From contig JAPLDT010000088.1 of the NCBI GenBank assembly GCA_026391315.1, positions 6,222 through 70,221 of the forward strand: DNA of 64,000 nucleotides, in the 5' to 3' direction. The notes under the pieces are model-generated. The model did no database searches and was not told the DNA's origin. It saw only the letters and a list, made by a program, of their open reading frames with translations. The stretch is from Bacteroidia bacterium. Its GTDB lineage: Bacteria > Bacteroidota > Bacteroidia > Bacteroidales > Prolixibacteraceae. Each line of letters begins with the position of its first letter. Position 1 is the stretch's first letter. Of this stretch, positions 32,249 to 63,651 are shown piece by piece. The position numbers and the translations under genes were made by a program.

Positions 32249-32343
32249 GACGAGGCAGATTTGTGTGGATTACTATGTTTTTTGTTAGTGATATTGTACA
32301 AAGTGTGTTCGTGCAATTGGTTTAAAATTAGTGGAATTAGTTT

Positions 32344-32538: not shown

Positions 32539-32638
32539 TCGTAAATATTATTAGTAAATTATTAAATTTCAGTAAGTACTCATGGAACTCGCAAATGCAC
32601 TTATATCGCTTTTTGTGACATTAGTCTTTGCTCGTTTC
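32534..32638 (-). repeat. 105-nt duplicated leader, copy b
   Basis: By eye it is about 80 percent identical to 31969-32073. It ends exactly at the start codon of the DUF2283 gene. Confidence 0.85.
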
Positions 32639-32893
32639 ATACTTTTCTATTTTTGATGTTTTATAAGCTGTAACAACCAAGGGTGGGTTTTTTGAGTTAT
32701 TAACAAATATTCTGTAAAGATATGGTTTGTCGATTTCAATGACAATTTTTTGATAGATATCAATATTTCCCGATTTTATTATTTTCTTCTCTTTTGATTG
32801 TAGAATTTCCTCTATTATTTGTTTTGAAAGGGATCGGGCCTCAATCTGATCAATTACATGATTTGAAAACTGAAATATCTGTTTTAATGACAT
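32621..32893 (-). CDS. DUF4258-family protein (BECR/RelE-like toxin candidate)
   Basis: 90 aa. It shows FSNHVIDQIEARSLSKQIIEEIL...LVVTAYK, the pattern of DUF4258 proteins that commonly pair with DUF2283. Confidence 0.55.
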   Translation of the reverse strand: MSLKQIFQFSNHVIDQIEARSLSKQIIEEILQSKEKKIIKSGNIDIYQKIVIEIDKPYLYRIFVNNSKNPPLVVTAYKTSKIEKYETSKD

Positions 32894-33162
32894 AGATTAA
32901 ATCATTCAATTAATATGAAACGAAGTTTGATGAAAATAATTACTTGAATGAATTAATAAAGATTTGTGAAGCCTTATTTTCTCAGATTAATCTTAGTTGA
33001 AAATTGGAGAGGATTGAATCTGAATCTTATTATATTATTTTTGAACAATCGCTCTTTCCGTCCGAAAATAGGTTACCCGCTTTTTATAAAATGCTACCGC
33101 GGACCGTGCATCTTTCATATTCCCAACCCTATATTTTTTGTTTGGTGATATTATCATAAATG

Positions 33163-33187
33163 CGTTCGTGTAATTCGTGAAATTCGT
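33163..33187 (+). repeat. ACGAAT-triplet motif, inverted orientation
   Basis: CGTTCGTGTAATTCGTGAAATTCGT is the reverse complement of the motif seen elsewhere. It is preceded by TATATTTTTTGTTTGGTGATATTATCATAAA, which is shared with 36375-36405. Confidence 0.85.
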
Positions 33188-33364
33188 TCTTCATTAGAGT
33201 TGTTTGGAAATCAACAACAAAGAGAAAAGGGTCATTGTAGCAGAGGTGGAATTGAGTTTATTCAAAAAATTAGCCCAAATTAAAACCACAGAACTTGAGC
33301 AAAAGATTATCTTTCGACCACCCCTAATTACAAATCCGCGCCAGTGGTATTTTTTTGTATTTTA

Positions 33365-42995: not shown

Positions 42996-43123
42996 CCCTT
43001 CGGCTTCGCTCAGGGACCACCCCGCTCAGGGACTGGTCTCATTTTCTCATATTCCCCCTCGGCTACGCTCGGGGACCGGTGACTTGTCCCAGTCATCCCC
43101 CTTCGGCTACGCTCAGGGACCGG
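42996..43123 (+). repeat. Cluster of three 25-nt repeats plus a partial duplicate
   Basis: Copies lie at 42996-43018 (with a partial repeat at 43021-43036), 43055-43079 and 43098-43123. Spacing is irregular. Confidence 0.85.
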
Positions 43124-43924: not shown

Positions 43925-44794
43925 TCAAACCAGCGATAGCAAGTATTGTCCGTATTGATTCTTTTTTAGCAAATTACCTTGTTCACGGAGTTGAGCCTCG
44001 TCAATCCACTTGTTGCGAAAGGCGATCTCTTCTAGGCAGGCGACTTTGAGCCCCGTGCGTTTTTCGATGGTGGCAATGAAGGAGCCGGCCTCAAGCAACG
44101 ATTCATGGGTTCCGGTGTCGAGCCATGCGTAACCGCGACCCATCAGCTCAACTTTAAGCTCTTTTCTGTCGAGATAAACCTGGTTGACTGTGGTGATTTC
44201 CAGTTCGCCCCTGGGAGATGGTTTTATATTTTTTGCAATCCCTATCACAGAATTGGGGTAAAAGTAGAGTCCAATTACAGCATAATTGGATTTGGGTTTG
44301 TCAGGTTTCTCTTCGATGGTGGTGACATTTTCACTTGAATCGAATGTACATACCCCATAGCGTTCAGGATCATTGACCCAGTAGCCAAATACCGCAGCTT
44401 TTCTGTGAAAGGTCACCTGCTCAACGGCCTTGTTGAGGAGCTCAATAAATCCGTGTCCATAGAAAATATTGTCGCCTAAAACGAGACAGACGTCGTCGGA
44501 TCCAATAAAGTCTTCACCCAGTACAAATGCCTGGGCCAAACCATCCGGTGAAGGTTGGACAACATATTGAAGTTCAATGCCGAACTGAGAACCATCACCC
44601 AGCAGCCGGATAAAGGCGGCCTGTTCTTCGGGGGTAGTAATTATCAGTATTTCGCGGATGCCTGCCAGCATCAGCACCGACATAGGATAGTAAATCATCG
44701 GTTTATCGTAGATCGGGAGCAACTGCTTCGAAGTGCCAAGCGTAATCGGGTGCAGCCGCGATCCGGATCCGCCTGCAAGGATGATACCCTTCAT
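43925..44794 (-). CDS. rmlA: Glucose-1-phosphate thymidylyltransferase
   Basis: 289 aa. It shows [37 protein letters not shown]...[15 protein letters not shown]. Confidence 0.95.
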
Positions 44795-44871
44795 GGTAAG
44801 TGGATAAGTTGGTTTATAGGCGAAGATAGGAAGAATTTTGGAATGTTACGTTTTCTGGGGAATGAAACATT

Positions 44872-44951
44872 AAACGGGAAGAGGGAAACGGGAAGAGGGA
44901 AGAGGGAAACGGGAAGAGGGAAACGGGAAGAGGGAAGAGGGAAGAGGGAAT
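44872..44951 (+). repeat. Polypurine GGGAAGA/GGGAAAC tandem word array (about 13 GGG tracts)
   Basis: The sequence AAACGGGAAGAGGGAAACGGGAAGAGGGAAGAGGGAAACGGG... is read directly. It fits the G3-N4-G3 quadruplex motif many times over. Confidence 0.9.
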
Positions 44952-45049
44952 GGAGAGATAAATGTTGTTGGCAAATTTGGAATTATGGTAAAATATCGGT
45001 ATATTTAGGTAAGAGTTTAGGTTGTCAATTATTTTTAATTCTTTCAATT

Positions 45050-45427
45050 ATGAAAAATATAATATTGGTGCACACTGATTTAATTGTCTTTCAAAACGCA
45101 TTTAATTCGGCCGTTCAAATACATCAGTTTTCGCAAAACTTCCCATCTGAAGAAAAATTCTCCTTAACTGACCAAATTAGAAGAAGTTCACGATCAGTAG
45201 CTGCAAATCTTGCTGAGGCATTTAGAAAGAGAAGATACCCTAAGTCTTTTATTTCTAAATTGACAGATAGTGAAGGAGAGGCCGCAGAAACACAGGTATG
45301 GCTAAAGTTCGCAAATACCTTTAATTATCTTAACAGTGAGGATTATAATAAAATTAACTCAGCTTACGATCGCATTATTGCACAAATTGTTACGATGGTT
45401 CTCAATCCTGATAAGTGGACATTTTAA
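45050..45427 (+). CDS. Four-helix-bundle protein (TIGR02436 / 23S rRNA intervening-sequence protein family, Avd-like)
   Basis: 125 aa from the ATG at 45050. It shows FQNAFNSAVQIHQFSQNFPSEEKFSLTDQIRRSSRSVAANLAEAFRKRRYPKSFISKLTDSEGEAAETQVWL. The upstream part of track ORF 44555-45427 is antisense rmlA plus repeat sequence. Confidence 0.8.
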   Translation: MKNIILVHTDLIVFQNAFNSAVQIHQFSQNFPSEEKFSLTDQIRRSSRSVAANLAEAFRKRRYPKSFISKLTDSEGEAAETQVWLKFANTFNYLNSEDYNKINSAYDRIIAQIVTMVLNPDKWTF

Positions 45428-45466
45428 CTCCCACACCTCGCGTTTCCCGTTTCCCTCTTCGCTTCC

Positions 45467-45991
45467 TCATTCTTTCACCACAGCCAGATTGGTTGAGGGC
45501 GATTCTACCAGCACCGTAAAACCCAGCGGCAGAATGCGAAGGGCAACCCTGTTGTTGCCGCGAAAGGAGATGAGTTCACCACGGATGCCCATCATCGGAC
45601 CGGCAATGATTTCGACCTGCATGCCAGGAAGCAGCTCCTCCCTGGTAATTTCGACCTCTACCTCACTCTGTCCGAGCATCCGTTTGAGGATTTCAATGTC
45701 ATGGTCACGGATCACCGCTGCCTTTCCTTCGAAACGGACATACTGCATCACATTGTCGATTTGCAGTACGACATCGTAGTGTTTCCTGGTGATGTGAACA
45801 AATACATACCCGGAAATAAGCGGTATTTCTACCCATTTTTTACGGTCGCTCCACTGACGAAGCTTTCGTTGAAGAGGCAGGAAGGATTCGATTCCCTTAA
45901 ATTTTAACTCTTCATGTACCTTTTTCTCTGCACGTGAGTGGACATAGACAGCATGCCATTGTTCGATAAGGGGTTTTTCTTTTGGGGACAT
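45467..45991 (-). CDS. UpxY-family (NusG-like) transcription antiterminator
   Basis: 174 aa. It has an NGN domain (WHAVYVHSRAEKKVHEEL...ESFLPL) and a KOW-like region (GMQVEIIAGPMMGIRGELISF). It is the first gene of the locus, as in Bacteroides capsule operons. Confidence 0.8.
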   Translation of the reverse strand: MSPKEKPLIEQWHAVYVHSRAEKKVHEELKFKGIESFLPLQRKLRQWSDRKKWVEIPLISGYVFVHITRKHYDVVLQIDNVMQYVRFEGKAAVIRDHDIEILKRMLGQSEVEVEITREELLPGMQVEIIAGPMMGIRGELISFRGNNRVALRILPLGFTVLVESPSTNLAVVKE

Positions 45992-46056
45992 ATTCGGTAG
46001 ATTATAGATTCATACATCATTGAAAAAGAAGGGGAGACTGGGCGAATGAAAGAAAT

Positions 46057-46357
46057 GTTTGAAATGTTTAAAAAGTTTGAAAAGTTACCGGTCCCTGAGC
46101 GAAGTCGAAGGGAAATGTTTGAAATGTTTAGGAAGTTTAAAAAGTTGCTGGTCCCTGAGCCTGTCGAAGGGGCGAAGTAATTGGATAAAATAGTCACCGG
46201 TCCCTGAGCTTGTCGAAGGGGTTTTTCTGTATGGACCTTATGGTAAATAAATTTCACAACAAAGATCACAAGAGTTGACACGAAGGACACAAGGACTTCA
46301 ATTTTTCGGTTAAACTCCGGCACCGTTAACATTTCAAACTTTTTAAACATTTCAAAC
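46057..46357. promoter_or_regulatory. 30-bp inverted repeat pair (29/30 match) bracketing a 241-bp segment upstream of upxY; candidate invertible element
   Basis: The left arm at 46057-46086 is GTTTGAAATGTTTAAAAAGTTTGAAAAGTT. The right arm at 46328-46357 is AACATTTCAAACTTTTTAAACATTTCAAAC. The interior holds three reversed 25-nt repeats (46088-46112, 46148-46172, 46197-46221) and a second left-arm-like copy at 46117-46146. Confidence 0.5.
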
Positions 46358-46438
46358 AATTTAAACCAATAAGAAGTTGCGCAATTCTAAAAGTATAGGA
46401 TATGCAGGCAAAAGCATTCTCCCCTTCTCCCCCTCTTT

Positions 46439-48874
46439 TTACTTTGGGAAGCCCGATGGCGGTGCAGCCGCAGCGTCCGCGCCCCAGCTTTTGTTGGGCA
46501 ACTCGCCCATCTGCAGCTCAAGCAGCGCCCCATTCATCAGTTCCTCATGAGTAAACCACGGTTTGTTAAGCGGTTGACCATTCAGTTTGGCGCTTTGGAT
46601 GTACTTGTTTTTGACAGAACATCCGGTTGCTTTGATGGTAAAAGTCTTACCATTCCCGAGGGATATTTTTACCTCCTCGAAAAGCGGAGAGCCAATGTTG
46701 TAGTTGGGCAATCCAGGGGTAACCGGATAAAAGCCCATCGAGGAGAAGACCACAAATGCGGTCATACCACCGCCGTCCTCGTCACCGGGTATGCCGAAAA
46801 TGTTGTCCTTGAACCAGACATCCAGCAGAAAACGAATCCGCTTCTGGGTTTTCCAGGGTTCACCCGAATAGTTGTAGAGGTAGGGGATGAAGAAACTTGG
46901 TTCGTTGCCCATCGAATATTGCCCTACCATGCCGGTGGCATCGGCGAATTTGGCCCAGAAAGCGAATTTACTCCGGCCAAGCGGCTCGCGGAAAAGCTGA
47001 TCGATGGTGGCTGTGAATCCTTCGCGTCCACCCATCAACCCAATGAGGCCGTGGAGATCGTGTTGTGCCTGCCATGCATAGGTATAGCCGTTGTTTTCGT
47101 CGTAATAATCGCGTCCGCCAGGACCGCCATCGAATTTTGGATCAATGTCGATCCAGTTTCCGGCAGAATCTTTCGGCCACATTAGCTTCTTATCAGGACG
47201 ATAGAGGTTGCGGTAGTTGAGCGATTGTTTACGGTAGTAGACCGCATCATTAGGCTTGTTCAGCTCTCCTGCCATTTCAGATAAGGCCCAGTCGTCGAAA
47301 CTATGAGCGAGGGTGATGGCAACACTCTCGCGACGTTCAAAATCGTGCACAAGCTTGACCGTCTCAGTCTGTCCTGGCCACAAAGCAGGGTAAAAGCCTT
47401 TTTCGCGGTAGAATGTGTCGAGGATGCATTTCGGACCATTTCGCCAGGGAAGCATGGTGGCTGAGGTGGCATTCTTCAGCATCCCTTCGTAAGCTTTAGG
47501 GACATCAAAATTGCGGATCCCTTTTCGGTAACCATCCAGCAGTGCTACGGTGGAGTGAAAACCATTCATGGCAGGATCATCTTTGAATAGCAGCGGAAAT
47601 TGCGGCAGCCATCCCCCCTGTTCATACATGGTGACATACGATTGCAGCATGTCTCCCTCCATTTCGGGATGAAGAATGGAACGGAGTGGGTGCATGGCGA
47701 GATAAGTGTCCCAAATCCAGTCGTCCACGTAAAAATCGCGGGTGGTGGGGTGTACTTTGTGGTCGTAAGCGCTGTAGTATTGACCATGCTCGTTGATGTT
47801 GATCATCCTTTCGTACTGCCTGTACAGAGAGGTGTAGAAGGTGCGGCGCTGGGCTTCCGTACCTCCTTTTACCTTAATCTGGTCCATCACGGTAGTCCAT
47901 TTTTGCTCGGCATTTTTTCTGGTTCCGTCAAAATCCCATGCCGGAATCTCTGCTGCCAGATTGGCTTTGGCCTGTTGGATGCTGATAAAGGAGATGGCGT
48001 ATTTCATCACCACTTCCGAAGGGGTATTGGCTCCAAAGCGAATCCATGCACCCGGTTTGACGGATGATTCTCCTTTTTTAGGATCGGAAACCTGAAGGCT
48101 CAGCTTTCCGGCTTGACCGGCCTGGTTCACTTCACCGTACACATAAGCTTTCATCCCCATAAACTCTTCCGTTCCAGAAAAAGACATTCCCGATCTCCCA
48201 GTCTCCCAGTCCCCCAGTCCCTTAGTCTTTCCGTCTTTACTTCTTTCGGTCGCCCCTTCGCCCCCTCGTCCCTTCACCCCCTCGTTTTCCATCTCCCAAC
48301 TTCCCTGGTTGACAACGCGTAGCGCCAAAAACTTCTCTCCCTTACCAGGAAAGCTAAACCTGAAAATACCGCATTTGGCGCCGGGAGTGAACTCAGTTTT
48401 GATGTTGTTGTCAATGAAGTAGGTGGAATAGTAAAACGGACGAGTAATCTCCAGATCGTGGTCATAGGTTTGCCGTTTTCCCCAGGTTTCAGCTTTTGGC
48501 TCCCCCAGATAAGGCATGACTCCAAACAATTCCCCTTTGCGGTGGGAGGAGATGGTTAACGGAAAAAAACTGATCTGATCATCTAAATAATCTGCACGGA
48601 CAGGATAAAAACGTACCATTTGGTTAGGCAGATGCACTGTTGGACGCGTAGGCTGAAGGAGGATACCGACATTGCCAATGGTGGGGTCGACAGTTTCAAG
48701 ATTGGTGCGGGTTTGGGCGGTTGCGGAAAATGCGGATATTAGAAAGATAAGGGAAATGACGGAGAGACGGAGGGACGGAGGGACTAGGGGACTTGGAGAC
48801 TGGGAGACTGGGAGACTGGGAGAATTGACACTCGTACCTCTTCGAAACGGGATTGAAAATAGTTTGCTTTTCAT
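46439..48874 (-). CDS. GH92-family glycoside hydrolase (alpha-mannosidase-like), secreted
   Basis: I start it at Met-12 of the track ORF (MKSKLF...). It has GH92 hallmarks: YDHDLEITRPFYYSTYF, GMVGQYSMGNEPSFFIPYLY and GIPGDEDGGGMTAFVVFSSMGFYPVTPG. It carries two in-frame repeat-derived inserts (see findings). Confidence 0.85.
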   Translation of the reverse strand: MKSKLFSIPFRRGTSVNSPSLPVSQSPSPLVPPSLRLSVISLIFLISAFSATAQTRTNLETVDPTIGNVGILLQPTRPTVHLPNQMVRFYPVRADYLDDQISFFPLTISSHRKGELFGVMPYLGEPKAETWGKRQTYDHDLEITRPFYYSTYFIDNNIKTEFTPGAKCGIFRFSFPGKGEKFLALRVVNQGSWEMENEGVKGRGGEGATERSKDGKTKGLGDWETGRSGMSFSGTEEFMGMKAYVYGEVNQAGQAGKLSLQVSDPKKGESSVKPGAWIRFGANTPSEVVMKYAISFISIQQAKANLAAEIPAWDFDGTRKNAEQKWTTVMDQIKVKGGTEAQRRTFYTSLYRQYERMININEHGQYYSAYDHKVHPTTRDFYVDDWIWDTYLAMHPLRSILHPEMEGDMLQSYVTMYEQGGWLPQFPLLFKDDPAMNGFHSTVALLDGYRKGIRNFDVPKAYEGMLKNATSATMLPWRNGPKCILDTFYREKGFYPALWPGQTETVKLVHDFERRESVAITLAHSFDDWALSEMAGELNKPNDAVYYRKQSLNYRNLYRPDKKLMWPKDSAGNWIDIDPKFDGGPGGRDYYDENNGYTYAWQAQHDLHGLIGLMGGREGFTATIDQLFREPLGRSKFAFWAKFADATGMVGQYSMGNEPSFFIPYLYNYSGEPWKTQKRIRFLLDVWFKDNIFGIPGDEDGGGMTAFVVFSSMGFYPVTPGLPNYNIGSPLFEEVKISLGNGKTFTIKATGCSVKNKYIQSAKLNGQPLNKPWFTHEELMNGALLELQMGELPNKSWGADAAAAPPSGFPK
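48187..48290 (-). repeat. Repeat-word segment translated in frame inside GH92 (internal)
   Basis: The plus strand reads TCTCCCAGTCTCCCAGTCCCCCAGTCCC...CGCCCCTTCGCCCCCTCGTCCCTTCACCCCCTCG. It encodes ENEGVKGRGGEGATERSKDGKTKGLGDWETGRSG. The boundaries are approximate. Confidence 0.7.
48761..48832 (-). repeat. Repeat-word segment translated in frame in the GH92 signal-peptide n-region
   Basis: The plus strand reads GGAGAGACGGAGGGACGGAGGGACTAGGGGACTTGGAGACTGGGAGACTGGGAGACTGGGAGA. It encodes SPSLPVSQSPSPLVPPSLRLS. It is inverted relative to 48197-48222. Confidence 0.75.
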
Positions 48875-48936
48875 TGTAGTAGTTATAGTATGATTCAAAT
48901 AGTTCAATTTAAATTACTTTGAGACCTTAGTGAAAT

Positions 48937-48983
48937 CCTTTGTGGCCTTAGTGTTGAAATTTTTACCACTAAGACCACAAAGG
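48937..48983. repeat. Strong hairpin (17-bp stem with 1 mismatch, 13-nt loop) in the GH92/DUF1080 divergent spacer
   Basis: CCTTTGTGGCCTTAGTG ... CACTAAGACCACAAAGG. It is built from CACAAAGG/CCTTAGTG words that recur nearby. Confidence 0.8.
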
Positions 48984-49144
48984 AATGCACAAAGGAACAC
49001 AAAGTTGATCCGCAAATGATGGTTGCAAATGTAACTTGATTTGGGTAGAAAATCAATTCGAAAAAGATACCGTTTGCGATAACGGAATGGAAAAAGATGT
49101 TTATTTTAGCAAAAACATTTACCAACTATATTAGACCAATACAA

Positions 49145-50512
49145 ATGAAGAAAATTAGCATTTTGTTATTATTGACACTCTTTGTATCCGGAGCTTTCGC
49201 TGCTAAATCAGGATGGGTCAACCTGTTCAACGGGAAAAATCTGGACGGATGGAAAGTTGTCAACGGCAATGCAGACTACAAAATTGTCAACGGAGAGATT
49301 GTAGGTACCAGCATCTGTAACAGCCCGAACAGCTTTTTGGCTACCGGAGTCAACTATGGAGACTTTATCCTTGAATACGAAATGAAGATGGACCGCGGAC
49401 TCAACTCCGGTGTCCAGATCAGGAGTATCAGCGACCCGGCAGTCATGAATGGCAGGGTACACGGATACCAGGTGGAGTGCGATGACTCCGAACGCGCCTG
49501 GTCGGCAGGTATTTACGATGAAGCACGTCGCGGTTGGCTTTACCCGATGGAGTACAACCAGGCTGCAAAAAAATCTTACAAAAAAGGTGAATGGAACAGT
49601 TACCGGGTTGAGTGTGTTGGTAATACCATTCGCACCTGGCTCAATGGCGTACCCTGTGCCAATCTGGTAGATGACATGACGGCTTCAGGTCTGATCGCAC
49701 TTCAGGTCCATGCCATTGGAGATAGAAAAGAAGATGAAGGGAAAACGATCTGCTGGAGAAACATCCGGATCAAAACTGAAAAACTGGCTGCGGAACAGAA
49801 GAAAACTGATGCTCCCGAGGTAAGCTATCTGAGCAACACCCTTACCAAAGCTCAGCAAAAAGAGGGCTGGAAGTTGTTGTGGGATGGCAAAAGTATGAAT
49901 GGCTGGCTCAACGCAAGAGATGGCAAACTGCCCACAAAAGGATGGACAATCCTTGACAATGAAGTAGTAGCCAACCTGAAGGATAACAAAGGCGGAGGAG
50001 ACATAGTGACCGAAAAGGAGTACAAAAATTTCATCCTGGAGATTGATTTTAAATTTACTCCCAGGGCCAATGGCGGGATTAAATATTTTATTCAGCCCAA
50101 TCCCAAGGGAGAAGGATTTTCAAATATCGGCTGCGAATATCAAATTCTGGACGACAAATTGCATCCTGATGCTAAAGCGGGAATCAATGGCGACCGCACG
50201 CTGGCCTCATTGTACGACCTGATCCCTGCCAACTCTCAAAAATTTGATCCTGCCCAGTCTGTTAAACGGAGCAACGGTGTGAACCAGTGGGAACGTGCCC
50301 GCATCGAGGTAAGGGGTGAAAAAGTTGCCCACTATCTGAACGGCATCAAGATCGTAGAGTATATCCGCGGTACGCCTGAATGGAAAGCGCTGGTCGCAAC
50401 CAGCAAATTCGCGAAGGTCGCGGGCTTCGGCGAATATGCCACCGGCCACATCCTGCTGCAGGACCATGGGGATGAGGTGCATTACCGCAATATTAAGATA
50501 AAAGAGCTGTAA
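49145..50512 (+). CDS. Tandem DUF1080 (3-keto-disaccharide hydrolase-like) domain protein, secreted
   Basis: I start it at MKKISILLLLTLFVSGAFA. It has two copies of the pattern WxxLFNGKxLxGW...GDIxxxxxYxxFxLxxExK...NSGxxxR...EYQILD...RNIRIKEL. Confidence 0.8.
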   Translation: MKKISILLLLTLFVSGAFAAKSGWVNLFNGKNLDGWKVVNGNADYKIVNGEIVGTSICNSPNSFLATGVNYGDFILEYEMKMDRGLNSGVQIRSISDPAVMNGRVHGYQVECDDSERAWSAGIYDEARRGWLYPMEYNQAAKKSYKKGEWNSYRVECVGNTIRTWLNGVPCANLVDDMTASGLIALQVHAIGDRKEDEGKTICWRNIRIKTEKLAAEQKKTDAPEVSYLSNTLTKAQQKEGWKLLWDGKSMNGWLNARDGKLPTKGWTILDNEVVANLKDNKGGGDIVTEKEYKNFILEIDFKFTPRANGGIKYFIQPNPKGEGFSNIGCEYQILDDKLHPDAKAGINGDRTLASLYDLIPANSQKFDPAQSVKRSNGVNQWERARIEVRGEKVAHYLNGIKIVEYIRGTPEWKALVATSKFAKVAGFGEYATGHILLQDHGDEVHYRNIKIKEL

Positions 50513-50537
50513 TGAATAAGTTTGAAATGTTTTTTTA

Positions 50538-50558
50538 GTTTGAAATGTTTGAAGGGTT
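50538..50558. repeat. Left arm of the perfect 21-bp inverted repeat bracketing the second four-helix-bundle gene
   Basis: GTTTGAAATGTTTGAAGGGTT. Its exact reverse complement occurs at 51018-51038 and again at 51036-51056. Confidence 0.9.
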
Positions 50559-50615
50559 ACGGCCTCTTTGTAATTTGTTTAAAGGGTTTGAAATGTTTAT
50601 AATGTTTGAAATGTT

Positions 50616-51008
50616 ATGACTATTAAATGCTTTGAAGATTTAGAGATTTGGCAGGAAGCACGAGAATTGTGTAAACTGGTGAGACAAGTCACATTTAGGG
50701 AACCATTTGTAAATGAGTTCAGATTCAGGGATCAAATGAACGCATCGGCTGGATCGATAATGGATAACATTGCAGAAGGATTTGACAGAGGAGGAAACAA
50801 GGAATTCATACAATTTCTGAGTATCAGTAAAGGATCTTGCGATGAAACCCGCTCTCAATGTTACCGGGCTTTTGATGCCGGGTATATACAGGAAACAGAA
50901 CTCAATGATCTTTTGGGACGAACCCAACGATTAAAATTAAAAATTGGCAATTTTATGGAATACCTTAAACATAGTCCCCTAACCGGAACCAAATACAAGA
51001 AAGATTGA
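50616..51008 (+). CDS. Four-helix-bundle protein (TIGR02436 / 23S rRNA intervening-sequence protein family, Avd-like)
   Basis: 130 aa. It shows FEDLEIWQEARELCKLV...FRDQMNASAGSIMDNIAEGFDRGGNKEFIQFLSISKGSCDETRSQ. Confidence 0.85.
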   Translation: MTIKCFEDLEIWQEARELCKLVRQVTFREPFVNEFRFRDQMNASAGSIMDNIAEGFDRGGNKEFIQFLSISKGSCDETRSQCYRAFDAGYIQETELNDLLGRTQRLKLKIGNFMEYLKHSPLTGTKYKKD

Positions 51009-51017
51009 AATATTTCA

Positions 51018-51056
51018 AACCCTTCAAACATTTCAAACCCTTCAAACATTTCAAAC
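51018..51056. repeat. Right arm (two overlapping registers) of the 21-bp inverted repeat
   Basis: AACCCTTCAAACATTTCAAAC occurs at 51018-51038 and at 51036-51056. Confidence 0.9.
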
Positions 51057-51076
51057 AATTAAAACTACTATTTATC

Positions 51077-52432
51077 ATGGAACCAAAACAAGATTTATCC
51101 CGCCGCAACTTTATCTCCACCTCAGCATTGGGGAGTGTCGCGACACTGGGGGCCGCAAATTTGCTACTTTCCTGCTCTGGACCGGGAACCAAACCAATCA
51201 AAGAAACGGTCTCATCGGCGATGCTGGATCTGGCGCCGGATGGCAAAGTATTACGTGCAGGATTGGTAGGATGCGGCGGAAGAGGTACCGGTGCGGCCAT
51301 CAACTTTGTCGATGCAGGACCAAACCTTCAGATCGTTGCGCTGGGCGATGTTTTTCAGGATAAGATGGCCGAGTCGAGGGCTCAGCTGAAAAAGCAGCGA
51401 AACATTGAAGTGCCCGATGAAAAGTGTTTTGTCGGATTCGATAGTTACCAGAAGGTGCTCGATGCCGGCGTGGATATCGTCCTGTTGTGCACCCCTCCTC
51501 ATTTCCGGCCGGCCCATGTCGAAGCTGCCGTCAATGCCGGGAAGCACATCTTTATGGAGAAACCCTGTGCGGTCGATCCGGTTGGCGCACGATCCATTCT
51601 GGTCTCCTCCAAGAAGGCGGAGCAGCTGGGATTGTCGATTGTAAGCGGCACGATTCGTCGTGTGCAAAAAGATTATGTCGAGACACACAGGAGGGTTGCT
51701 GCTGGTGAGATCGGCGAGATTGTCAGCGCTCATGTGGTTCGGAATGGCGGTGCGCTTTGGGTGAAAAAGAGAAGACCCGAGTGGACCGACATGGAGTACA
51801 TGCTCCGCAATTGGGAGAACTTCTGCTGGCTCTCGGGCGACCACATCGTCGAACAGTTTATCCACGAGGTAGATGTGATGAACTGGCACATTGGAAAAAA
51901 TCCGGTGAAATGTATGGGCTGGGGTGGCCGTCAGCGGCGCGTCTCAGGCGACCAGTACGATTTTTTCAGCGTCGAATATGTCTACGACAACGGAATGCAG
52001 GCACATTGCGCCGCCCGTCAGGTAAGCGGATGCAGCAACCTGAAGCGCGAAATCATCGTGGGTACCAAGGGATATGCCGATTGCAACGGCACGCTTTTCC
52101 ATCCGGATGGTACGGTGATGTGGAAATATCCATACCCAAAAGACGGGGATACCGATCTGACCTGGAAGGTTAAAGATCCTTATGTGCAGGAGCATGTTAA
52201 CCTGGTGACGGCGATACGTACGGGAAAACGGTTCAGTGATGCGGAGGCCCAGGTCAATTCTACCCTGATCACCATGATGGGAAGAATCGCGGCCTACACC
52301 GGCAAGGATGTTACCTGGGATGAGATGATGAACTCCGGTCTTTCGCTGGGACCTAAAACATATGCCTTCGGGCCTGTTCCAAATATCCCGGAGGTGATTC
52401 CGGTGATTGGGATTGAAGCGGTGCCTTCGTAA
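51077..52432 (+). CDS. Gfo/Idh/MocA-family oxidoreductase with Tat signal
   Basis: I start it at MEPKQDLSRRNFISTSALGSVATLGAANLLLS (twin-arginine motif). It also shows GLVGCGGRGTGAA and FMEKP. The 24 upstream track codons (FKPFKHFKPFKHF) translate repeat words. Confidence 0.85.
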   Translation: MEPKQDLSRRNFISTSALGSVATLGAANLLLSCSGPGTKPIKETVSSAMLDLAPDGKVLRAGLVGCGGRGTGAAINFVDAGPNLQIVALGDVFQDKMAESRAQLKKQRNIEVPDEKCFVGFDSYQKVLDAGVDIVLLCTPPHFRPAHVEAAVNAGKHIFMEKPCAVDPVGARSILVSSKKAEQLGLSIVSGTIRRVQKDYVETHRRVAAGEIGEIVSAHVVRNGGALWVKKRRPEWTDMEYMLRNWENFCWLSGDHIVEQFIHEVDVMNWHIGKNPVKCMGWGGRQRRVSGDQYDFFSVEYVYDNGMQAHCAARQVSGCSNLKREIIVGTKGYADCNGTLFHPDGTVMWKYPYPKDGDTDLTWKVKDPYVQEHVNLVTAIRTGKRFSDAEAQVNSTLITMMGRIAAYTGKDVTWDEMMNSGLSLGPKTYAFGPVPNIPEVIPVIGIEAVPS

Positions 52433-52601
52433 AAAAAGTTTGAAGGGTTTGAAAAGTTTAAAATGTTTAGCGCCCCAAACACTTCAATTTTTTTGAACAC
52501 TTCAAACAAACTAAAATATCTTTCGGCAGACTCAGAAACCATTGGATCTTGGTAGGGATGTTCCGAGACCGTAACCCTTCAAACATTTTAAACTTTTAGG
52601 A

Positions 52602-53504
52602 ATGAAACGCAGGGAATTTGCCAGAAACACAATTGCAGCCTCATTGGGAGTGATGGCAGCCCCCAATTTGGGGATTGCCCAAACTGAAAAGAGCCCGGCA
52701 AGATCCATCAAAAAGGGGATCATGTGGGGAAATATTGGGTTCGGTACATCCATTATGGAAAAATTTCAGGCTGCCAAGACAGCCGGGTTCGATGGTGTTG
52801 AGGTGTACAGTCATCTCAACAGGGAGGAGGTTCTTCAGGCTGCCAAACAAACCGGAATGATCATCCCATCTGTTTGCGGCTCCCTTCATGGCAAATATTC
52901 ATTGTCCGATCCCGATCCGAAGGTCCGGGCACTTGGGGTTGATGCGCTAAAGGTAACCTTTGAAGATGCCAAAGCTTATGGCGCAGACACCATCCTGCTG
53001 GTTCCCGGCAGGGTGAACGAAACGGTCAGCTACGACCAATGCTGGGATTTGTCGATCGCTGAGATTCGAAAGGTTCTTCCGTTGGCTGGGAAGCTTGGTG
53101 TGACCATTGCCATCGAAAATGTCTGGAACAACTTTCTGCTTTCGCCGCTTGAGGCAGCCCGCTACATCGACCAATTCAATTCGCCTCTCGTGAAGGCCTA
53201 TTTCGATTGCGGAAATGTGCTGGTCATCGGATGGCCGGAGCAGTGGATCAGAATCCTTGGGAAGCGAATCGCGAGGATTCATATCAAAGAATACAGCCGG
53301 AAAATTGCCGACAAACAGGGTAAATGGGCCGGATTTGGTGTGGCTTTGCAGGAGGGCGACAACAACTGGCCGGTCATTGTCAAAGCTCTGGATGAAATTG
53401 GTTACCATGGTTGGGCAACCATCGAACAACCAGGAGGAGATAACCCAGAGGGTTTAAAAGAGTTGTGCCATCGTCTGACAAATATCCTTAATCTTCCATT
53501 ATGA
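52602..53504 (+). CDS. Xylose-isomerase-like TIM-barrel sugar phosphate isomerase/epimerase with Tat signal
   Basis: 300 aa. It shows MKRREFARNTIAASLGVMAAP, then the AP-endonuclease-2/TIM pattern (IAIENVWNNFL, HIKEY). Confidence 0.8.
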   Translation: MKRREFARNTIAASLGVMAAPNLGIAQTEKSPARSIKKGIMWGNIGFGTSIMEKFQAAKTAGFDGVEVYSHLNREEVLQAAKQTGMIIPSVCGSLHGKYSLSDPDPKVRALGVDALKVTFEDAKAYGADTILLVPGRVNETVSYDQCWDLSIAEIRKVLPLAGKLGVTIAIENVWNNFLLSPLEAARYIDQFNSPLVKAYFDCGNVLVIGWPEQWIRILGKRIARIHIKEYSRKIADKQGKWAGFGVALQEGDNNWPVIVKALDEIGYHGWATIEQPGGDNPEGLKELCHRLTNILNLPL

Positions 53505-56822: not shown

Positions 56823-59549
56823 TTATTTGATGTTTTCAATCAGACTGTGAAACGCCTTCCTCTCCACCTCCCCGCCTTCGGAGTAATGGGTTACATTTTC
56901 GCGTTTTGCAATACGGCAGAAATTGTCGTAGGTGCCATCCTGACGGGCAATGGCTGGTGTGCGTTTGCATTTGAGATAGAGAACTGGCAAGGAGCACATT
57001 TCAACACGGCGAACCACTTCGTCATTGTCGGCTACTTTAACCGCCTCTTTGAAAATATCGCACGACTGTTGCACGAAATCATCGGAGAAGATGGCATCGC
57101 CCGGTGTCAGTCCCAGATGTATATGGGTATCCGGTGTGATACGGTTGTGCAGCAGATCGAAATATTGCCTGACGAACTTTCCGGCCCGACCATAATAACC
57201 GTACATGAAATCGTTGATAACTGCCTCAGTATTGCACTCCGGATTCCACAATAATTTGGAAATCAGGTAGGAACGAAGCTCGGAAAACTCACCCCCACGG
57301 CTTTGGTAAGCAGCCTGCTCCATGATGCCAATGGCGTTGTTGTCCCTGAACGACTGTATGTTGGATTGCAGTACCCTGAAGTTGGGGTAAGGCATCACAT
57401 AATGCAAGAAATTAACCACATAATCCCAGATGTACATGTGGGGCGCAATGGCCGACCATCCCTTCAGATCATTGAGGAAGGATTTGTTTTCGGGACAGGA
57501 TTTGAAATCGTGTGCGAAACAGCATTCGATGCTGCACAACCGCACCACCACATTGTTCCTGGGCTTGATGTCTTTTGGCGGTGTTCTGGTATAAGTGTAG
57601 GCCAGTGTGCCGATAAATTTGTCAGGGAACTCCTTCTCCACCGCTTCGGCCACCTGATTTACAAACCAGATGATCAGTCCGGATTCGCTCCCTTTGGCCT
57701 TGACTATGGCCTGGCATTTGTCGCATTGGCACGGGTTGTTCCAGTCGTTTTGGGAGACATCGTAAATCAGGTATTCAGGACTTTCGCGCATCCGTTTTCT
57801 GATACGGTCTGTGATAATTCGCAGTACATCCGGGTTTGTGAGGCAAAGCTGTGCCTGCTCATGGATCCGTTTGCCATCGATTAAACTGTAATATTCGGGA
57901 TGTTTTTTGTAAAATTCTTCCGGTGGCATCAGCGGGTAAAAGGTATGAACCGCCCAGTAGCTATCGATGCCGCCGGGTTGTTCGCGGTAGCCCATGGCTC
58001 CGTTCATCTTGTTGCGGGTGGCCCAGATCGGATCAAAAGCCTCAAAATAGAAATCATTCCGTACCCGGACGCCCGGTTTTTCGGCATGGTCGAACCAGAC
58101 AAATTTCAGCTCCTCCCTTTTGGGGATCACATTCACGGTAGGGGTGTACCAACGGCAGCCCAGCTCTCTTTCCAGGAATTCGAAGACACCATACATGGTG
58201 CCACGCTTCTGGCCTCCGGTGATGAAAATGTTAGGACCGGAGTTGTAGTAGTGGAAGGATTCTTCGGCTGAAGCGGTGGTCTCCGCTGAGCCTGTCGAAG
58301 CGTGAAACCTTACAAGTGGGGATAAGTCGGTCCCTGAGCTTGTCGAAGGGTTTTGGGAGCTCTTCGAATCTGACTGAAAAGTGATTGATGACGCTTCGAC
58401 AGGCTCAGCGACCGGATCTTTCTTCTTCATTGTCAATTTGTTCACTTCGACAGGCTCAGTGAACAAATTGACTGCATCAGTACCAACTACAATTTTCGGT
58501 CCTTTATAATTCGGGTCTTCAGGGAGTTGCGGCAATTCCACCCCACTGATCTCCTTCAACCAGTGCTGAAGCTCTTTGGCAGCCCATTTTTCTGATTCTG
58601 AGGCATTGTTGGCAATGGCGATCCGGTAATCAGATTTTCCATGACTGAAAAGTGCATATTCGATTCGCTTTCCTGCCGTGAATTCGCTTGTTCGTTGCAG
58701 TATCTTTCCCGATTTCAGCTGAACAGTAACCTTTGCCTGGTATGGTTGGTAATTGGCTGACGGAATTTTAAGCGGAGTACAAAAGTTGGCAGTACGATCC
58801 ACCTTCAGGATCTCGGTGCCGTGAATGTCGCTGATGGTTACAGTTACTTTTTGAATCAGGTAGTTCAAAACATCCGGAAGGTAGGAGGAGAGGACGCTTG
58901 CAGTTCCGGATTCGTCAGCCCGGACTTTGAAAAGATCACCTCTATTGAGGGCTTCTGCAGCGGAAAAATTGTGAAATCTCAGGGCGAATCCCCATTTGTT
59001 TCCATGCTGTTCGACTTTTAACAGGAGGGTGTTGGTTCCTTTTTTTAGCATAACGGGGATCAGATCTCCATCAATTATGACACTGCGCTTGGTCGGATAA
59101 TCGAAAACTGAAGTACCGTTTACGAAGAGTTGTGCCCCGTCGTTGGTGCCCAGGCCAATCAGGTGAACACCCTCTTCTGCTGCCTCGACACTGGTAAAGG
59201 CATAGGCAAAAACGGGATAAGATTTGGAGAAGGCTGCGACCAGGTCGACGATCGAATCGGTCGACTGCCAATATTTCCAGACCATCGACTTTTTGCCGAT
59301 TTTGATTGCATCGCCGGCTTTTACCGATAGGTTTTGCTCTCCGCCCAATTTGCCGAGGTAATCTGTCTTGAATCCGGGAAGGTGATCCCACGATTTTTCG
59401 GGATCCGGCTGAGTTTGCAGCGGGATCGGACCGAGCAGCAGCCAGGATTTTAGGAATTGGCCGGGGATGATTTTCTGCGGAACATTTTGACAAAATCCCG
59501 GCAGGGAAATAAGTAGGAATAAAGAAATAGAAAGAAATAGTTGTTTCAT
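56823..59549 (-). CDS. DUF4838-domain putative glycoside hydrolase with N-terminal carbohydrate-binding-like region; carries an in-frame repeat insertion
   Basis: 908 aa. It has a signal peptide (MKQLFLSISLFLLISLPGFC). AAKELQHWLKEISGVELP and RGTMYGVFEFLERELGCRWYTP are typical of DUF4838 proteins. Confidence 0.65.
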   Translation of the reverse strand: MKQLFLSISLFLLISLPGFCQNVPQKIIPGQFLKSWLLLGPIPLQTQPDPEKSWDHLPGFKTDYLGKLGGEQNLSVKAGDAIKIGKKSMVWKYWQSTDSIVDLVAAFSKSYPVFAYAFTSVEAAEEGVHLIGLGTNDGAQLFVNGTSVFDYPTKRSVIIDGDLIPVMLKKGTNTLLLKVEQHGNKWGFALRFHNFSAAEALNRGDLFKVRADESGTASVLSSYLPDVLNYLIQKVTVTISDIHGTEILKVDRTANFCTPLKIPSANYQPYQAKVTVQLKSGKILQRTSEFTAGKRIEYALFSHGKSDYRIAIANNASESEKWAAKELQHWLKEISGVELPQLPEDPNYKGPKIVVGTDAVNLFTEPVEVNKLTMKKKDPVAEPVEASSITFQSDSKSSQNPSTSSGTDLSPLVRFHASTGSAETTASAEESFHYYNSGPNIFITGGQKRGTMYGVFEFLERELGCRWYTPTVNVIPKREELKFVWFDHAEKPGVRVRNDFYFEAFDPIWATRNKMNGAMGYREQPGGIDSYWAVHTFYPLMPPEEFYKKHPEYYSLIDGKRIHEQAQLCLTNPDVLRIITDRIRKRMRESPEYLIYDVSQNDWNNPCQCDKCQAIVKAKGSESGLIIWFVNQVAEAVEKEFPDKFIGTLAYTYTRTPPKDIKPRNNVVVRLCSIECCFAHDFKSCPENKSFLNDLKGWSAIAPHMYIWDYVVNFLHYVMPYPNFRVLQSNIQSFRDNNAIGIMEQAAYQSRGGEFSELRSYLISKLLWNPECNTEAVINDFMYGYYGRAGKFVRQYFDLLHNRITPDTHIHLGLTPGDAIFSDDFVQQSCDIFKEAVKVADNDEVVRRVEMCSLPVLYLKCKRTPAIARQDGTYDNFCRIAKRENVTHYSEGGEVERKAFHSLIENIK
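58270..58472 (-). repeat. Nested palindromic repeat block of about 200 nt translated in frame inside the DUF4838 gene
   Basis: Four CTGAGC-NNN-TCGAAG units are present, two in each orientation. There is a perfect 19-bp inverted repeat (58284-58302 / 58392-58410) and a 14-bp-stem palindrome at 58432-58472. Confidence 0.8.
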
Positions 59550-62485: not shown

Positions 62486-62685
62486 TTACACAGAGTCTCA
62501 CAGAGGAGCACAGAGTTTCACAGAGAGGACGAATTGTTTGATTTTTTTTTATTGTTTGAAATGTTTGAAATGTTTGAAATGTTTGAAATGTTTGAAATGT
62601 TTGAAATGTTAAGGCTGACAACCCTCCAAATATTTCTTAATTTTTCTCTGTGCAACTCTGTGCTCCTCTGTGTAACTCTGTGTAA
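62486..62685. repeat. 41-bp inverted repeat (38/41 match) of CACAGAG words enclosing a GTTTGAAAT x6 tandem array
   Basis: The left arm is 62486-62526 and the right arm is 62645-62685. The tandem array (9-nt unit) is at 62554-62610. It lies in the divergent spacer between 60018-62444 (-) and 62785-63651 (+). Confidence 0.9.
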
Positions 62686-62784: not shown

Positions 62785-63651
62785 ATGAACAGAAGAGAGA
62801 TGATCGGGAAAACTGCCGCTTCGGTGGCCTTGTCGGCAACTGTTTTGCCTTTTCAGGAAAGTAGGGCAGCAGAACCGGCTTCAGGCGGATTGAAGGGAAA
62901 TATTCACCATTCGGTAAGCCAATGGTGTTACGGCGACATTCCACTTACAGACCTGGCAAAGGCATGCAAAGAGATGGGAATTGAGTCGATCGAACTGCTC
63001 CAGGAGAAGGATTGGGCAACGGTTCAAGCGCAGGGACTCAAATGTGCCGTTGGATATGCTACCGATTGGGGCATTCCCAAAGGATTCAACAGGATGGAGA
63101 ACCATGATAAACTGGTGGCCGATTTCGAGGCGATGATCCCTAAGGCGGCTGCTGCAGGAGTTCCCAACCTGATCTGTTTCTCCGGTAACCGGGAGGGCCA
63201 AAACGATCAGGTTGGACTGATCAATTGTGCCAAGGGATTGCGCAGGCTTACCCCGCTTGCCGAAAAGCATGGGGTGACGATCATCATGGAGTTGCTCAAC
63301 AGTTATGGCCACAAGGATTATCAGTGTGACCATACGGCCTGGGGCGCTGCCCTTTGCGAGATGGTTGGATCAGATAGGTTTAAGTTGCTGTATGATATTT
63401 TCCACATGCAGATCATGGAGGGGAATGTAATTGACACTATTCGTAAAAACAGCAAGTACATTGGCCACATTCATACCGGAGGTGTTCCCGGCCGGCACGA
63501 ACTGGATGAGACCCAGGAACTTTACTATCCTGCCATCATGAAGGCAATTGTCGATACCGGTTACAAAGGTTTTGTCGGACAGGAGTTTGTGCCAACCAAC
63601 CCCGACAAACTGGCGGCGCTACGCAAATGCATTCTGATATGCGATGTTTAG
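62785..63651 (+). CDS. Xylose-isomerase-like TIM-barrel protein (hydroxypyruvate-isomerase-like) with Tat signal
   Basis: I start it at the ATG at 62785 (MNRREMIGKTAASVALSATVLP). It also shows IIMELLNS, YDIFHMQIMEG and HIHTGG. The track ORF starts at an upstream GTG. Confidence 0.8.
   Translation: MNRREMIGKTAASVALSATVLPFQESRAAEPASGGLKGNIHHSVSQWCYGDIPLTDLAKACKEMGIESIELLQEKDWATVQAQGLKCAVGYATDWGIPKGFNRMENHDKLVADFEAMIPKAAAAGVPNLICFSGNREGQNDQVGLINCAKGLRRLTPLAEKHGVTIIMELLNSYGHKDYQCDHTAWGAALCEMVGSDRFKLLYDIFHMQIMEGNVIDTIRKNSKYIGHIHTGGVPGRHELDETQELYYPAIMKAIVDTGYKGFVGQEFVPTNPDKLAALRKCILICDV

Follow-up and report, generated by a model that had tools for sequence, protein, structure and literature searches.

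The window analysed here, i.e., the whole stretch of 64,000 nt from a Bacteroidia bacterium of the Prolixibacteraceae (assembly GCA_026391315.1, contig JAPLDT010000088.1, positions 6,222 to 70,221 of the forward strand), contains a small gene, 4HB-2, that encodes a four-helix-bundle (4HB) protein and is bracketed by a perfect inverted repeat of 21 nt. The 5' arm, GTTTGAAATGTTTGAAGGGTT, is found at 50538-50558 on the plus strand, and its exact reverse complement at 51018-51038 and again at 51036-51056. A sequence-only reading of this DNA had placed this repeat around the coding sequence 50616-51008 and had described the unit, which we call cassette 2, as lying in the sense orientation between a DUF1080 gene and a gene for a twin-arginine translocation (Tat)-dependent oxidoreductase. 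All of these coordinates were reproduced, and the three genes are indeed encoded on the plus strand, cassette 2 filling the spacer that separates two genes of a sugar operon, both of which run in its own direction. The stop codon of the DUF1080 gene lies 7 nt ahead of the first of the short tandem repeat units (words) of the cassette, and the ATG of the oxidoreductase gene is located 11 nt past the end of its 3' array. The same reading had claimed that the other 4HB gene of the window (4HB-1, first cassette) is bracketed likewise by other words, which also holds: a 17-nt perfect inverted repeat, GAAGAGGGAAACGGGAA, surrounds the open reading frame (ORF) 45050-45427, with copies at 44878-44894, 44899-44915 and 44913-44929 that pair with 45444-45460. 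In this first cassette the gaps measure 120-155 nt before the ORF and 16 nt after it.

The arms of cassette 2 are those parts of longer arrays of tandem 9-nt words (Table 1) that match best, and the word variants stand in mirrored order within the arms. The distance from the end of the outer arm to the ATG is 57 nt, and the 3' array begins at the stop codon. The inner 5' array (50576-50615) is complementary to 51009-51048 over 40 nt at 85%, and the extended imperfect stems that the arrays can form reach 39-59 nt with 71-87% complementarity. With no mismatches, the 21-mer is found within the 64-kb window at the three sites of cassette 2 only; allowing up to 3 mismatches there are 13 matches, against 0.01 expected from shuffles. 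A stretch that joins arm sequence to the first bases of the linker (GGGTTACGGyCTC) is found again, inverted, at 52563-52575. As a separate observation, positions 50543-50562 and 52569-52588 form a 20-nt perfect inverted repeat that includes non-word bases and encloses the 4HB-2 gene and the entire oxidoreductase gene; the segment 52569-52593 is an inverted copy of the 21-mer with 1 mismatch. The 5' arm of cassette 2 thus has a second, more distant partner at 52569-52588.

Short-period arrays are abundant in the spacers of the window, where GTTTGAAAT alone occurs 18 times across five spacers and CCCAGT-type words are also present. Since the spacers are full of arrays, the proper null is any gene of this genome and not random sequence. 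We have therefore determined the longest exact inverted repeat between both flanks of each of the 52 long ORFs of the window. A flanking repeat of at least 12 nt was found only for the two 4HB genes (21 and 17 nt) and for the adjacent oxidoreductase gene (17 nt), which uses the 3' array that it has in common with cassette 2; the remaining ORFs have 10 nt or less. Thus, word hairpins are common in these spacers, but they do not bracket whatever gene happens to be enclosed.

The product of 4HB-2 matches PF05635 (8.5e-31, 106.8 bits, cut-off 33.8) and the 'four helix bundle protein' model TIGR02436 (7e-29, 100.2 bits, cut-off 24), and its N-terminus agrees with the family consensus MxIxxFEDLEIW. 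The AlphaFold2 model (pLDDT 92.2; helices 10-26, 35-57, 61-87 and 93-119) confidently predicts the up-and-down four-helix bundle of about 110-130 residues that characterises the family. Its best Foldseek matches are 2GSC (Xcc0516; TM 0.80/0.91) and 2RLD (BT_0352; 0.73/0.86), followed by Avd, a protein of diversity-generating retroelements (DGRs) (bAvd, 4DWL and 8UB7; bAvd TM 0.74/0.88); a phmmer comparison with 2GSC gave 1e-8. The homologues with solved structures (2GSC, 4DWL) are pentamers of four-helix bundles (PMC4990558). Three positions of the conserved family motif GxxRxxxSxxxNxxE (PMC3936711), namely S47, N51 and E54, are present in 4HB-2 and invariant across the alignment, whereas the Arg of the motif is replaced by Asn. 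Nonsynonymous and synonymous differences relative to the homologue of locus L003 (pN 0.115, pS 0.82) point to purifying selection on the coding sequence. PADLOC gave no match. The family to which it belongs, that of the proteins encoded in 23S rRNA intervening sequences (IVSs), is very large, with at least 7,984 proteins at E ≤ 1e-5, and it has been described as functionally uncharacterised (PMC4990558, PMC11270868).

We have surveyed the bracket in 79 loci, almost all from Bacteroidota, which were obtained by searching species-representative genomes with the 4HB-2 protein; the survey also takes in the metagenome loci L001-L008 and the window. A purpose-built profile recognised 107 4HB ORFs, but it missed a decayed one in L091 that was found by eye, so that the 4HB counts are lower bounds. 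Each gene received a bracket score, i.e., the best ungapped inverted match (+1/-2) between the 250 nt upstream and the 150 nt downstream, with a threshold of 14. This threshold was reached by 53 of 92 non-redundant 4HB genes (58%) versus 13 of 719 control ORFs (1.8%; Fisher's test, 2e-45), the controls being separated by more than 400 nt from the nearest 4HB gene and possibly including a few unrecognised cassette genes. The median scores were 15 and 8, respectively. The match is lost when partners are swapped: the upstream flank of one cassette compared with the downstream flank of another gave a median score of 8, and the arms compared with those of a second cassette of the same locus reached 14 in just 1 of 32 comparisons. 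Moreover, the arms were exclusively inverted in 44 cases and exclusively direct in 4. The general IVS-like cassette organisation proposed in the sequence-only reading therefore finds strong support well beyond the window: the bracket is real and specific to the 4HB family, of which it is the customary arrangement in Bacteroidota, and plasmids of cyanobacteria show it as well.

In every cassette flank inspected, the matching arms consist of tandem words of 7-9 nt, and the word varies from genome to genome. In the typical geometry (medians), an arm of 30 nt ends about 50 nt before the ATG and its partner starts about 13 nt after the stop codon. The density of arrays within 300 nt of a 4HB gene is about 8 times that elsewhere, and 62 of the 102 inverted array pairs enclose a 4HB ORF, a proportion that is biased by ascertainment because the loci were chosen for carrying a 4HB gene. 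The 5' arm is G-rich and C-poor, on either strand, in 45 of the 53 cassettes. Most 4HB genes (70 of 82, 85%) are co-directional with both neighbours, and the median distances to the upstream and downstream genes are 88 and 63 nt, so that the cassette essentially fills the spacer.

Among the high-scoring controls, three are genes of about 124 aa of the GxxExxY family (TIGR04256, 1e-43 to 1e-46) with the same kind of bracket made of inverted word arrays, suggesting that this type of cassette may carry at least two unrelated families of small proteins. Another two are IS200/RAYT-like ORFs with palindromes resembling repetitive extragenic palindromes (REPs; AACCCCTTCAGAG...) on both flanks (L036 4049-4642 and L037 15736-16206); the one in L036 reaches 53.9 bits with the NCBIfam model of the REP-associated tyrosine transposase (RAYT), below its cut-off of 80. 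Palindromes of the form GTAGAGACG...CGTCTCTAC were also observed in spacers of related genomes (L088 5480-5830, L051 17100-18050). Both kinds of palindrome represent other repeat systems residing in the same spacers. The long spacer of L088 between the oxidoreductase and TIM-barrel genes contains no further 4HB gene, and GTAG-type palindromes are found there instead.

The sequence-only reading had also held that the element, and not the specific word, is what matters. This view stood for the exact word, which differs between the orthologous first cassettes of the window and L001, but not for the class of word, which follows the protein subfamily. The arrays adjoining 4HB-2-type genes are heptamers in 69% of cases, and GTT[TC] is present in 69% of them versus 26% of the arrays elsewhere in the same loci (Fisher's test, 2e-15). 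The orthogroup of 4HB-1 comprises the genes of the window and L001 and those on plasmids of Nostoc, Brasilonema, Tolypothrix, Oscillatoria and Leptolyngbya (loci L168-L173), and purine-rich GGGRAGN-type words flank 7 of its 8 members, including those of 5 of the 6 cyanobacterial plasmids. On the plasmids these words are inverted in three cases (scores 15-22), less clearly so in Leptolyngbya (12), and direct in Oscillatoria. The nearest plasmid-borne relatives of the 4HB-1 orthogroup are cyanobacterial, and the 4HB-1 protein of the window is as close to them (48-59% identity) as to its positional counterpart in L001 (60%), which suggests that the cassette lineage has been exchanged between Bacteroidota and Cyanobacteria. 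A common 5'-arm sequence was found in 1% of the pairs of cassettes with 20-40% protein identity, in 13% of those with 60-70% and in 46% of those with at least 70%, this last figure being partly confounded by synteny. The arms appear to be co-inherited with the 4HB gene. Those of each cassette are private, but the class of word follows the subfamily of the protein. This link between class and subfamily is compatible with a putative action of the protein on the stem or on the words.

Relatives of the locus were found via a 99%-identical truncated 4HB protein and by a metagenome scan with the oxidoreductase. Cassette-free alleles, which were looked for, do exist: among syntenic contigs whose oxidoreductase protein is 91-97% identical, the spacer upstream of this gene exists in five states, with intact, decayed, truncated or missing ORFs (Table 1). 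For the ORF-less alleles, folding predicts clean hairpins in this position (z = -4.3 to -5.0). At distant oxidoreductase loci (≤81% identity), no word-array hairpin was found upstream of the gene, and many of the spacers measure 36-90 nt, indicating that the hairpin is an add-on of this lineage and not a conserved design of the operon. The cassette is therefore a dispensable unit with a fast turnover. No target-site duplication was seen at the slot edges of the five alleles, and the neighbourhoods inspected contain no recombinase, transposase or reverse transcriptase in or adjoining the cassettes. At the right edge of the slot, the host sequence (ATTTCAAACAA) is similar to the word used in the window.

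The turnover also involves changes of place and of content. L003/L004, from a relative whose DNA is 68-83% identical across syntenic segments, carry a 4HB-2-like cassette (76% DNA identity) with the same GTTTGAAAT/GTTTGAAGG words at a different site, where it follows the gene orthologous to window 62785-63651; no 4HB gene is present at this place in the window. The 4HB-1 genes of the window and L001 occupy the same place, between rfbA and a NusG-like gene, and their proteins are 60% identical, but they show no detectable similarity in DNA, whereas the flanking genes are 80-89% identical in DNA. Their words are entirely different (GGGGAGAAGGGGCGAG... versus ...CTCGCCCCTTCTCCCC), and the pS of 0.78 between them exceeds that of the flanks (0.44-0.59), which suggests a replacement by a related cassette.

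In L001/L002 the truncated 4HB-2 gene stands in a segment (L001 6070-6540, compared with window 45992-50704) that lacks the GH92 gene. Two fragments are left of the DUF1080 gene, matching window 49024-49118 and 50200-50347, and an ORF-less GGGAGACT hairpin follows the NusG-like gene. The DUF1080 fragments and the 4HB remnant are about 96-98% identical to the window, and the flanking genes 88-93%. We have considered the remnant as a young, cassette-specific transfer (dS 0.075 versus 0.41 for the oxidoreductase) and rejected this interpretation, since the DUF1080 fragments are equally similar (about 96%), a pattern that points to a recombination tract.

Table 1. Position of the features discussed in the text and states of the spacer (slot) upstream of the oxidoreductase gene.
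Feature	Locus	Coordinates or length	Strand	Remarks
Upstream host gene	window	49097..50512	+	two DUF1080 / 3-keto-disaccharide-hydrolase domains
Cassette 2, outer 5' word array	window	50520..50558	+	GTTTGAAAT / GTTTGAAGG units; includes 21-nt arm 50538-50558
Cassette 2, non-repeat linker ACGGCCTCTTTGTAATT	window	50559..50575	+	separates the two 5' arrays
Cassette 2, inner 5' word array	window	50576..50615	+	directly adjoins start codon of 4HB-2 gene
Cassette 2, 4HB-2 gene, 130 aa	window	50616..51008	+	cargo within the predicted hairpin loop
Cassette 2, 3' word array	window	51005..51065	+	TTCAAAC units, reverse complement of 5' words; arms 51018-51038, 51036-51056
Downstream host gene	window	51077..52432	+	GFO/IDH/MocA oxidoreductase; SRRNF twin-arginine N-terminus
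Spacer after oxidoreductase gene	window	52434..52597	+	ORF-less word hairpins, word family as in cassette 2
First cassette, 5' array	window	44864..44957	+	GGGAAGA / GGGAAAC heptamers
First cassette, promoter-like motif TTTG-N20-TATATTTA	window	44967..44998	+	Bacteroidota-type; between arm and ORF
First cassette, 4HB-1 gene, 125 aa	window	45050..45427	+	28% identical to 4HB-2
First cassette, 3' arm (TTCCCGTTTCCCTCTTC)	window	45438..45463	+	
ORF-less word hairpin, GTTTGAAAT family	window	46052..46366		27-nt perfect inverted repeat, 249-nt loop
GxxExxY genes	L020; L021; L022	4629-5006; 7502-7873; 6273-6647		
Slot: intact 4HB-2 cassette	window			
Slot: ORF-less hairpin, AAAGTGAA words	L088, L089, L090	spacer about 130-140 nt		
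Slot: ORF-less hairpin, CCTTTGTG words	L125	129 nt		
Slot: 4HB-like ORF of another subfamily, two in-frame stops	L091			flanked by GAGTTGAGA/TCTCAACTC words
Slot: 4HB-2 without first 88 nt and without whole 5' arm	L001/L002			beside DUF1080 gene fragments

Upstream of 4HB-2 we have not found any promoter-like motif of the Bacteroidota type (scan for TTTG-N17-23-TAnnTTTn), and the two spacers of cassette 2 contain no terminator-like site on the plus strand. A scan of the spacers for sigma-70 promoters and intrinsic terminators gave nothing above shuffles, although it is of little value for Bacteroidota promoters. Across the survey, the TTTG-N17-23-TAnnTTTn motif was found upstream of 3 of 95 4HB genes, and the strict TAnnTTTG box upstream of none of the 95. 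Two of the three are the 4HB-1 genes of the window and L001, in which TTTG-N20-TATATTTA is kept although the remaining spacer is not. With neither a promoter motif nor a terminator-like site, the transcription of cassette 2 would most simply be explained by read-through from the DUF1080 gene, and both arms would then be present on one RNA. The predicted fold of this RNA (50513-51076) has an energy of -141.9 kcal/mol (z = -3.8). The minimum free energy structure and the centroid structure agree in pairing the 5' with the 3' arrays, and the bases immediately 5' of the 4HB-2 ATG are predicted to be buried in the inner stem. Rfam revealed no rRNA or other family in the window at the gathering threshold, and an E-value search of 44700-52700 gave nothing relevant.

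The explanation that we favour, with a probability of roughly 0.55, is that cassette 2 is a dispensable, fast-turnover hairpin cassette of the IVS type. According to this proposal, it would be transcribed by read-through from the DUF1080 gene, and its 5' and 3' arrays would pair in the RNA as two nested stems, with the 4HB ORF in the loop, its translation start hidden in the double strand and the two host cistrons brought into close proximity. The double-stranded stem would be a substrate of RNase III, as in the ORF-bearing 23S rRNA IVSs, and the cut would remove or neutralise the insert without harm to the host transcript, a property by which a selfish or near-neutral element could live in operons and in rRNA alike. 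The ORF-less word hairpins would be empty derivatives of the cassette, and the complementarity of the arms would owe no less to copying arm from arm, i.e., to templating at the DNA level, than to selection on RNA pairing.

Several observations weigh against this proposal. Read-through, stem formation and RNase III cleavage are all steps that we infer for cassette 2 from its sequence. The bracket is common but not obligatory, since about 40% of the 4HB genes score below 14. The 4HB-1 gene is antisense to both of its neighbours, and the promoter-like motif of the first cassette lies downstream of the 5' arm, so that an mRNA of its own would be devoid of this arm. In the sense strand of 64 stems there are 83 G:U-compatible mismatches versus 100 of the A:C type (p = 0.24), besides 215 of the transversion type, a test that is confounded by register shifts within the arrays; with no excess of G:U-compatible mismatches, there is no positive signature of selection for RNA pairing, and the complementarity of the stems could be kept purely at the DNA level. 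As for the protein, 4HB-2 is not basic but near neutral (pI 6.6), and its residue 42 is Asn instead of the Arg of the subfamily and the motif (QMNAS versus QIRAS; QMNASAGSIMDNIAEG versus QIRASSGSIMDNIAEG).

It is possible, even if rather doubtful, that cassette 2 is instead a mobile cassette at the DNA level, an idea that can coexist with the RNA-level model. The inverted arrays would then be terminal repeats or homology arms, and the unit would reach other spacers or rRNA helices as a copy, either because arrays with a common word recombine or allow template switching, or because hairpin tips are targeted, with the 4HB protein serving as a word-specific maintenance or mobility factor, as RAYT does for REP. 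The turnover of the cassettes speaks for it, because entire hairpins differ among its alleles, arms included, L003/L004 carry a cassette with the same words at another site, and the high pS and the different words of the two 4HB-1 genes suggest replacement. So do the stems, which lack an RNA-strand signature (83 versus 100) and show a mirrored order of word variants that fits templated copying, as well as the similarity of the right slot edge (ATTTCAAACAA) to the word of the window and the tracking of the protein subfamily by the word class across phyla. In addition, the GxxExxY genes, of a PD-(D/E)XK-type family, are bracketed alike, and the recovery of RAYT-like genes with REP-like palindromes indicates that our screen detects such relations. 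However, we have found neither a recombinase, transposase or reverse transcriptase in or beside the cassettes nor a target-site duplication at the slot edges, and proteins with the 4HB fold are not known to be catalysts. In L001, the DUF1080 fragments are as similar to the window as the 4HB remnant, which reflects a recombination tract and not a cassette-specific transfer, and a purely DNA-level element does not predict the sense placement between co-directional genes (70 of 82).

It is unlikely that the arrays are cis-regulatory elements, serving as operators or RNA sites bound by a host factor or by the 4HB pentamer itself and acting in autoregulation or in the control of a neighbour, with an inverted layout that would reflect symmetric binding and not pairing. 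The subfamily-specific class of the words, the arrays adjoining the start codon, the pentameric state of the solved homologues 2GSC and 4DWL (PMC4990558) and the regulator sites proposed for heptamer direct repeats near start codons in Beggiatoaceae, cyanobacteria and some Bacteroidetes (PMC4679880) would all suit such a function. Nevertheless, binding sites need no mirrored reverse complements, yet inverted arms outnumber direct ones by 44 to 4; orthologous cassettes use different exact words, ORF-less hairpins with unrelated words are found in the same slot, and the 4HB-2 protein is not basic. A mere coincidence, with a small gene flanked by chance by two oppositely oriented arrays of the most frequent word, might be invoked because five spacers of the window contain 18 copies of GTTTGAAAT in total and many spacers have arrays and local hairpins. 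It is very improbable, given that the exact 21-mer is confined to cassette 2, that the bracketing is specific to the 4HB genes among the 52 ORFs of the window, and that across loci the frequencies are 58% versus 1.8% (2e-45) with 44 inverted versus 4 direct cases. Finally, we consider practically negligible the chance that the 4HB gene is the Avd of a DGR and the repeats its template and variable repeats. The fold does resemble bAvd (TM 0.74/0.88), and 4HB-1 has weak matches to bAvd/DGR Avd models, those of PHROGs included, but the neighbourhood contains no reverse transcriptase and no pair of template and variable repeats, 4HB-2 matches neither NF033474 nor PF22296, 4HB-1 attains just 26.9 (cut-off 80) and 28.4 (cut-off 40), and the repeats of the cassettes are non-coding tandem words.

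A broader and quite tentative idea, which we regard as rather unlikely, is that 4HB and GxxExxY proteins are word-specific partners of tandem-heptamer hairpins, in the way that RAYTs are partners of REPs, each with its own class of word (GTTYNRR, GGGRAGN), and that they help to create, homogenise or move the cassettes. The cassettes might then, with equally modest likelihood, colonise hairpin tips in operon spacers, cas loci and rRNA helices. If this idea were true, one mechanism would account for the ORF-bearing rRNA IVSs, a puzzle of 30 years, for the arrays of cyanobacteria and Bacteroidota known as short tandemly repeated repetitive sequences (STRRs) or heptamer repeats, and for the abundance of these tiny genes. 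With the present results, a curiosity of rRNA genes becomes a general and testable class of elements that keeps the anatomy of an IVS outside rRNA. The bracket provides a reproducible genomic signature for a very large and long-uncharacterised protein family, the hairpins of a single operon slot alternate between filled, decayed and empty states, and the cassettes offer a possible origin for the many intergenic short-tandem-repeat hairpins of these genomes.

We have considered and rejected that the arrays of cassette 2 form a CRISPR (clustered regularly interspaced short palindromic repeats) array: their units of 7-9 nt run head to tail without spacers, whereas CRISPR arrays have repeats of 24-48 nt and unique spacers. 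It is plausible that word arrays could nevertheless be mistaken for CRISPR-like repeats, and this might contribute to the reports of the family as CRISPR-associated. Genes of the 23S_rRNA_IVP family have been described wedged among cas genes, e.g., between cmr3 and cmr2 (PMC3936711).

The window contains several gene-free local word hairpins, e.g., at 46056-46358 (27-nt perfect arms), 52438-52597 and 62499-62672; the ORF-less hairpin 46052-46366 would be an empty form of the cassette element. At 62489-62682 one kind of word is nested inside a hairpin of another, the arms being of the CACAGAG type (19-nt perfect inverted repeat) and the loop a perfect (TGTTTGAAA) x 6.4 array. Word arrays were also observed within a reading frame: the GH92-like ORF 46439-48907 includes in-frame arrays at 48194-48285 and 48758-48823 (translated as ...GRGGEGATERSKDGKTKGLGDWETGRSG... 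and ...SLPVSQSPSPLVPPSLRLS...), which make an 18-nt perfect inverted repeat, 586 nt apart. The motif CCCTGAGCGAAGTCGAAGGG recurs at window 46088-46218, 43110-43123 and 58284-58459 and around position 10000 of L020, with three copies within the loop of the ORF-less hairpin. An ORF of 908 aa includes an inverted pair of 20 nt, and a further inverted pair surrounds the 4HB gene of L020. A 3-kb segment in the polysaccharide-export cluster (window 30168-33364) carries three toxin-antitoxin-like pairs, judged by their translations: a RelE/ParE-like pair (30229-30686), a HEPN and nucleotidyltransferase pair (30771-31485) and a third one (32344-32893). Arrays of the ATTTCACGA type separate these pairs.

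Among the known systems, miniature inverted-repeat transposable elements (MITEs) and integron cassettes resemble cassette 2 in being small units devoid of a promoter that carry at most one ORF between inverted repeats, are inserted in intergenic spacers and vary in presence among relatives. They differ in that no terminal sequence is conserved across the copies of our cassettes, whose arms differ even within one genome, and no target-site duplication, integrase/attC or transposase partner was identified. The STRR and heptamer repeats of cyanobacteria, Beggiatoaceae and Bacteroidetes are likewise intergenic tandem arrays of heptamers or nonamers that often end near a start codon, and they have a patchy phylogenetic distribution that includes Cyanobacteria and Bacteroidetes, but in that literature they are direct repeats, tied neither to 4HB genes nor to an inverted partner array (PMC4679880). 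REP/RAYT systems and REPINs share with the cassettes a small gene flanked by inverted copies of a short repeat that also populates other spacers, and in REP/RAYT systems the type of repeat is likewise specific to the gene lineage. Unlike RAYTs, which are IS200-like tyrosine (HUH) transposases, however, the 4HB protein has no transposase fold, catalytic motif or match to Y1 transposases, and the repeats of the cassettes are tandem words of 7-9 nt and not single palindromes of 20-40 nt.

The DGR protein Avd (bAvd 4DWL, 8UB7) is a homologous four-helix bundle, pentameric in crystals, that works on structured RNA together with a reverse transcriptase, and as a scaffold of both it is the nearest functional precedent for 4HB-2. 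Avd is strongly basic, whereas 4HB-2 is neutral, no reverse transcriptase, template or variable repeat is found near the cassettes, and their HMM scores are below the Avd cut-offs.

The closest known system is the ORF-bearing 23S rRNA IVS of Leptospira, Coxiella, Xanthomonas and Brucella. In the 23S IVS of Coxiella, the S23p ORF lies in the sense orientation after tandem heptamers, within an inverted-repeat stem that is cut by RNase III; the heptamers (GACAGAT) vary in copy number, and the ORF decays in some strains (PMC4990558). In bacteria of the candidate phyla radiation (CPR), 23S_rRNA_IVP ORFs are spread over several insertion sites of the 16S and 23S rRNA, and ORF-bearing and ORF-less rRNA insertions at the same sites have been described there for other (LAGLIDADG) families (PMC11270868). 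A hairpin bracket of 4HB genes outside rRNA was not found described in the openly searchable literature, which does not cover subscription papers. Cassette 2 shares with the 23S IVS a PF05635 protein, an ORF that is in sense with the host transcript and in the loop of an inverted-repeat stem, short tandem repeats directly upstream of the ORF (the arrays 50520-50615 reach the ATG), and the coexistence of ORF-less and ORF-bearing versions, with an ORF prone to decay. It differs in its host, which is the spacer of an mRNA operon and not helix 25 or 45 of the 23S rRNA, and in its arms, which are built almost wholly of tandem word arrays; moreover, RNase III excision has been shown for the rRNA IVS, whereas cassette 2 is known from its sequence and predicted fold. 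Since its host is not an rRNA, cassette 2 is not a 23S IVS in the strict sense, and the best description is that of an element of the same kind residing in a different type of transcript.

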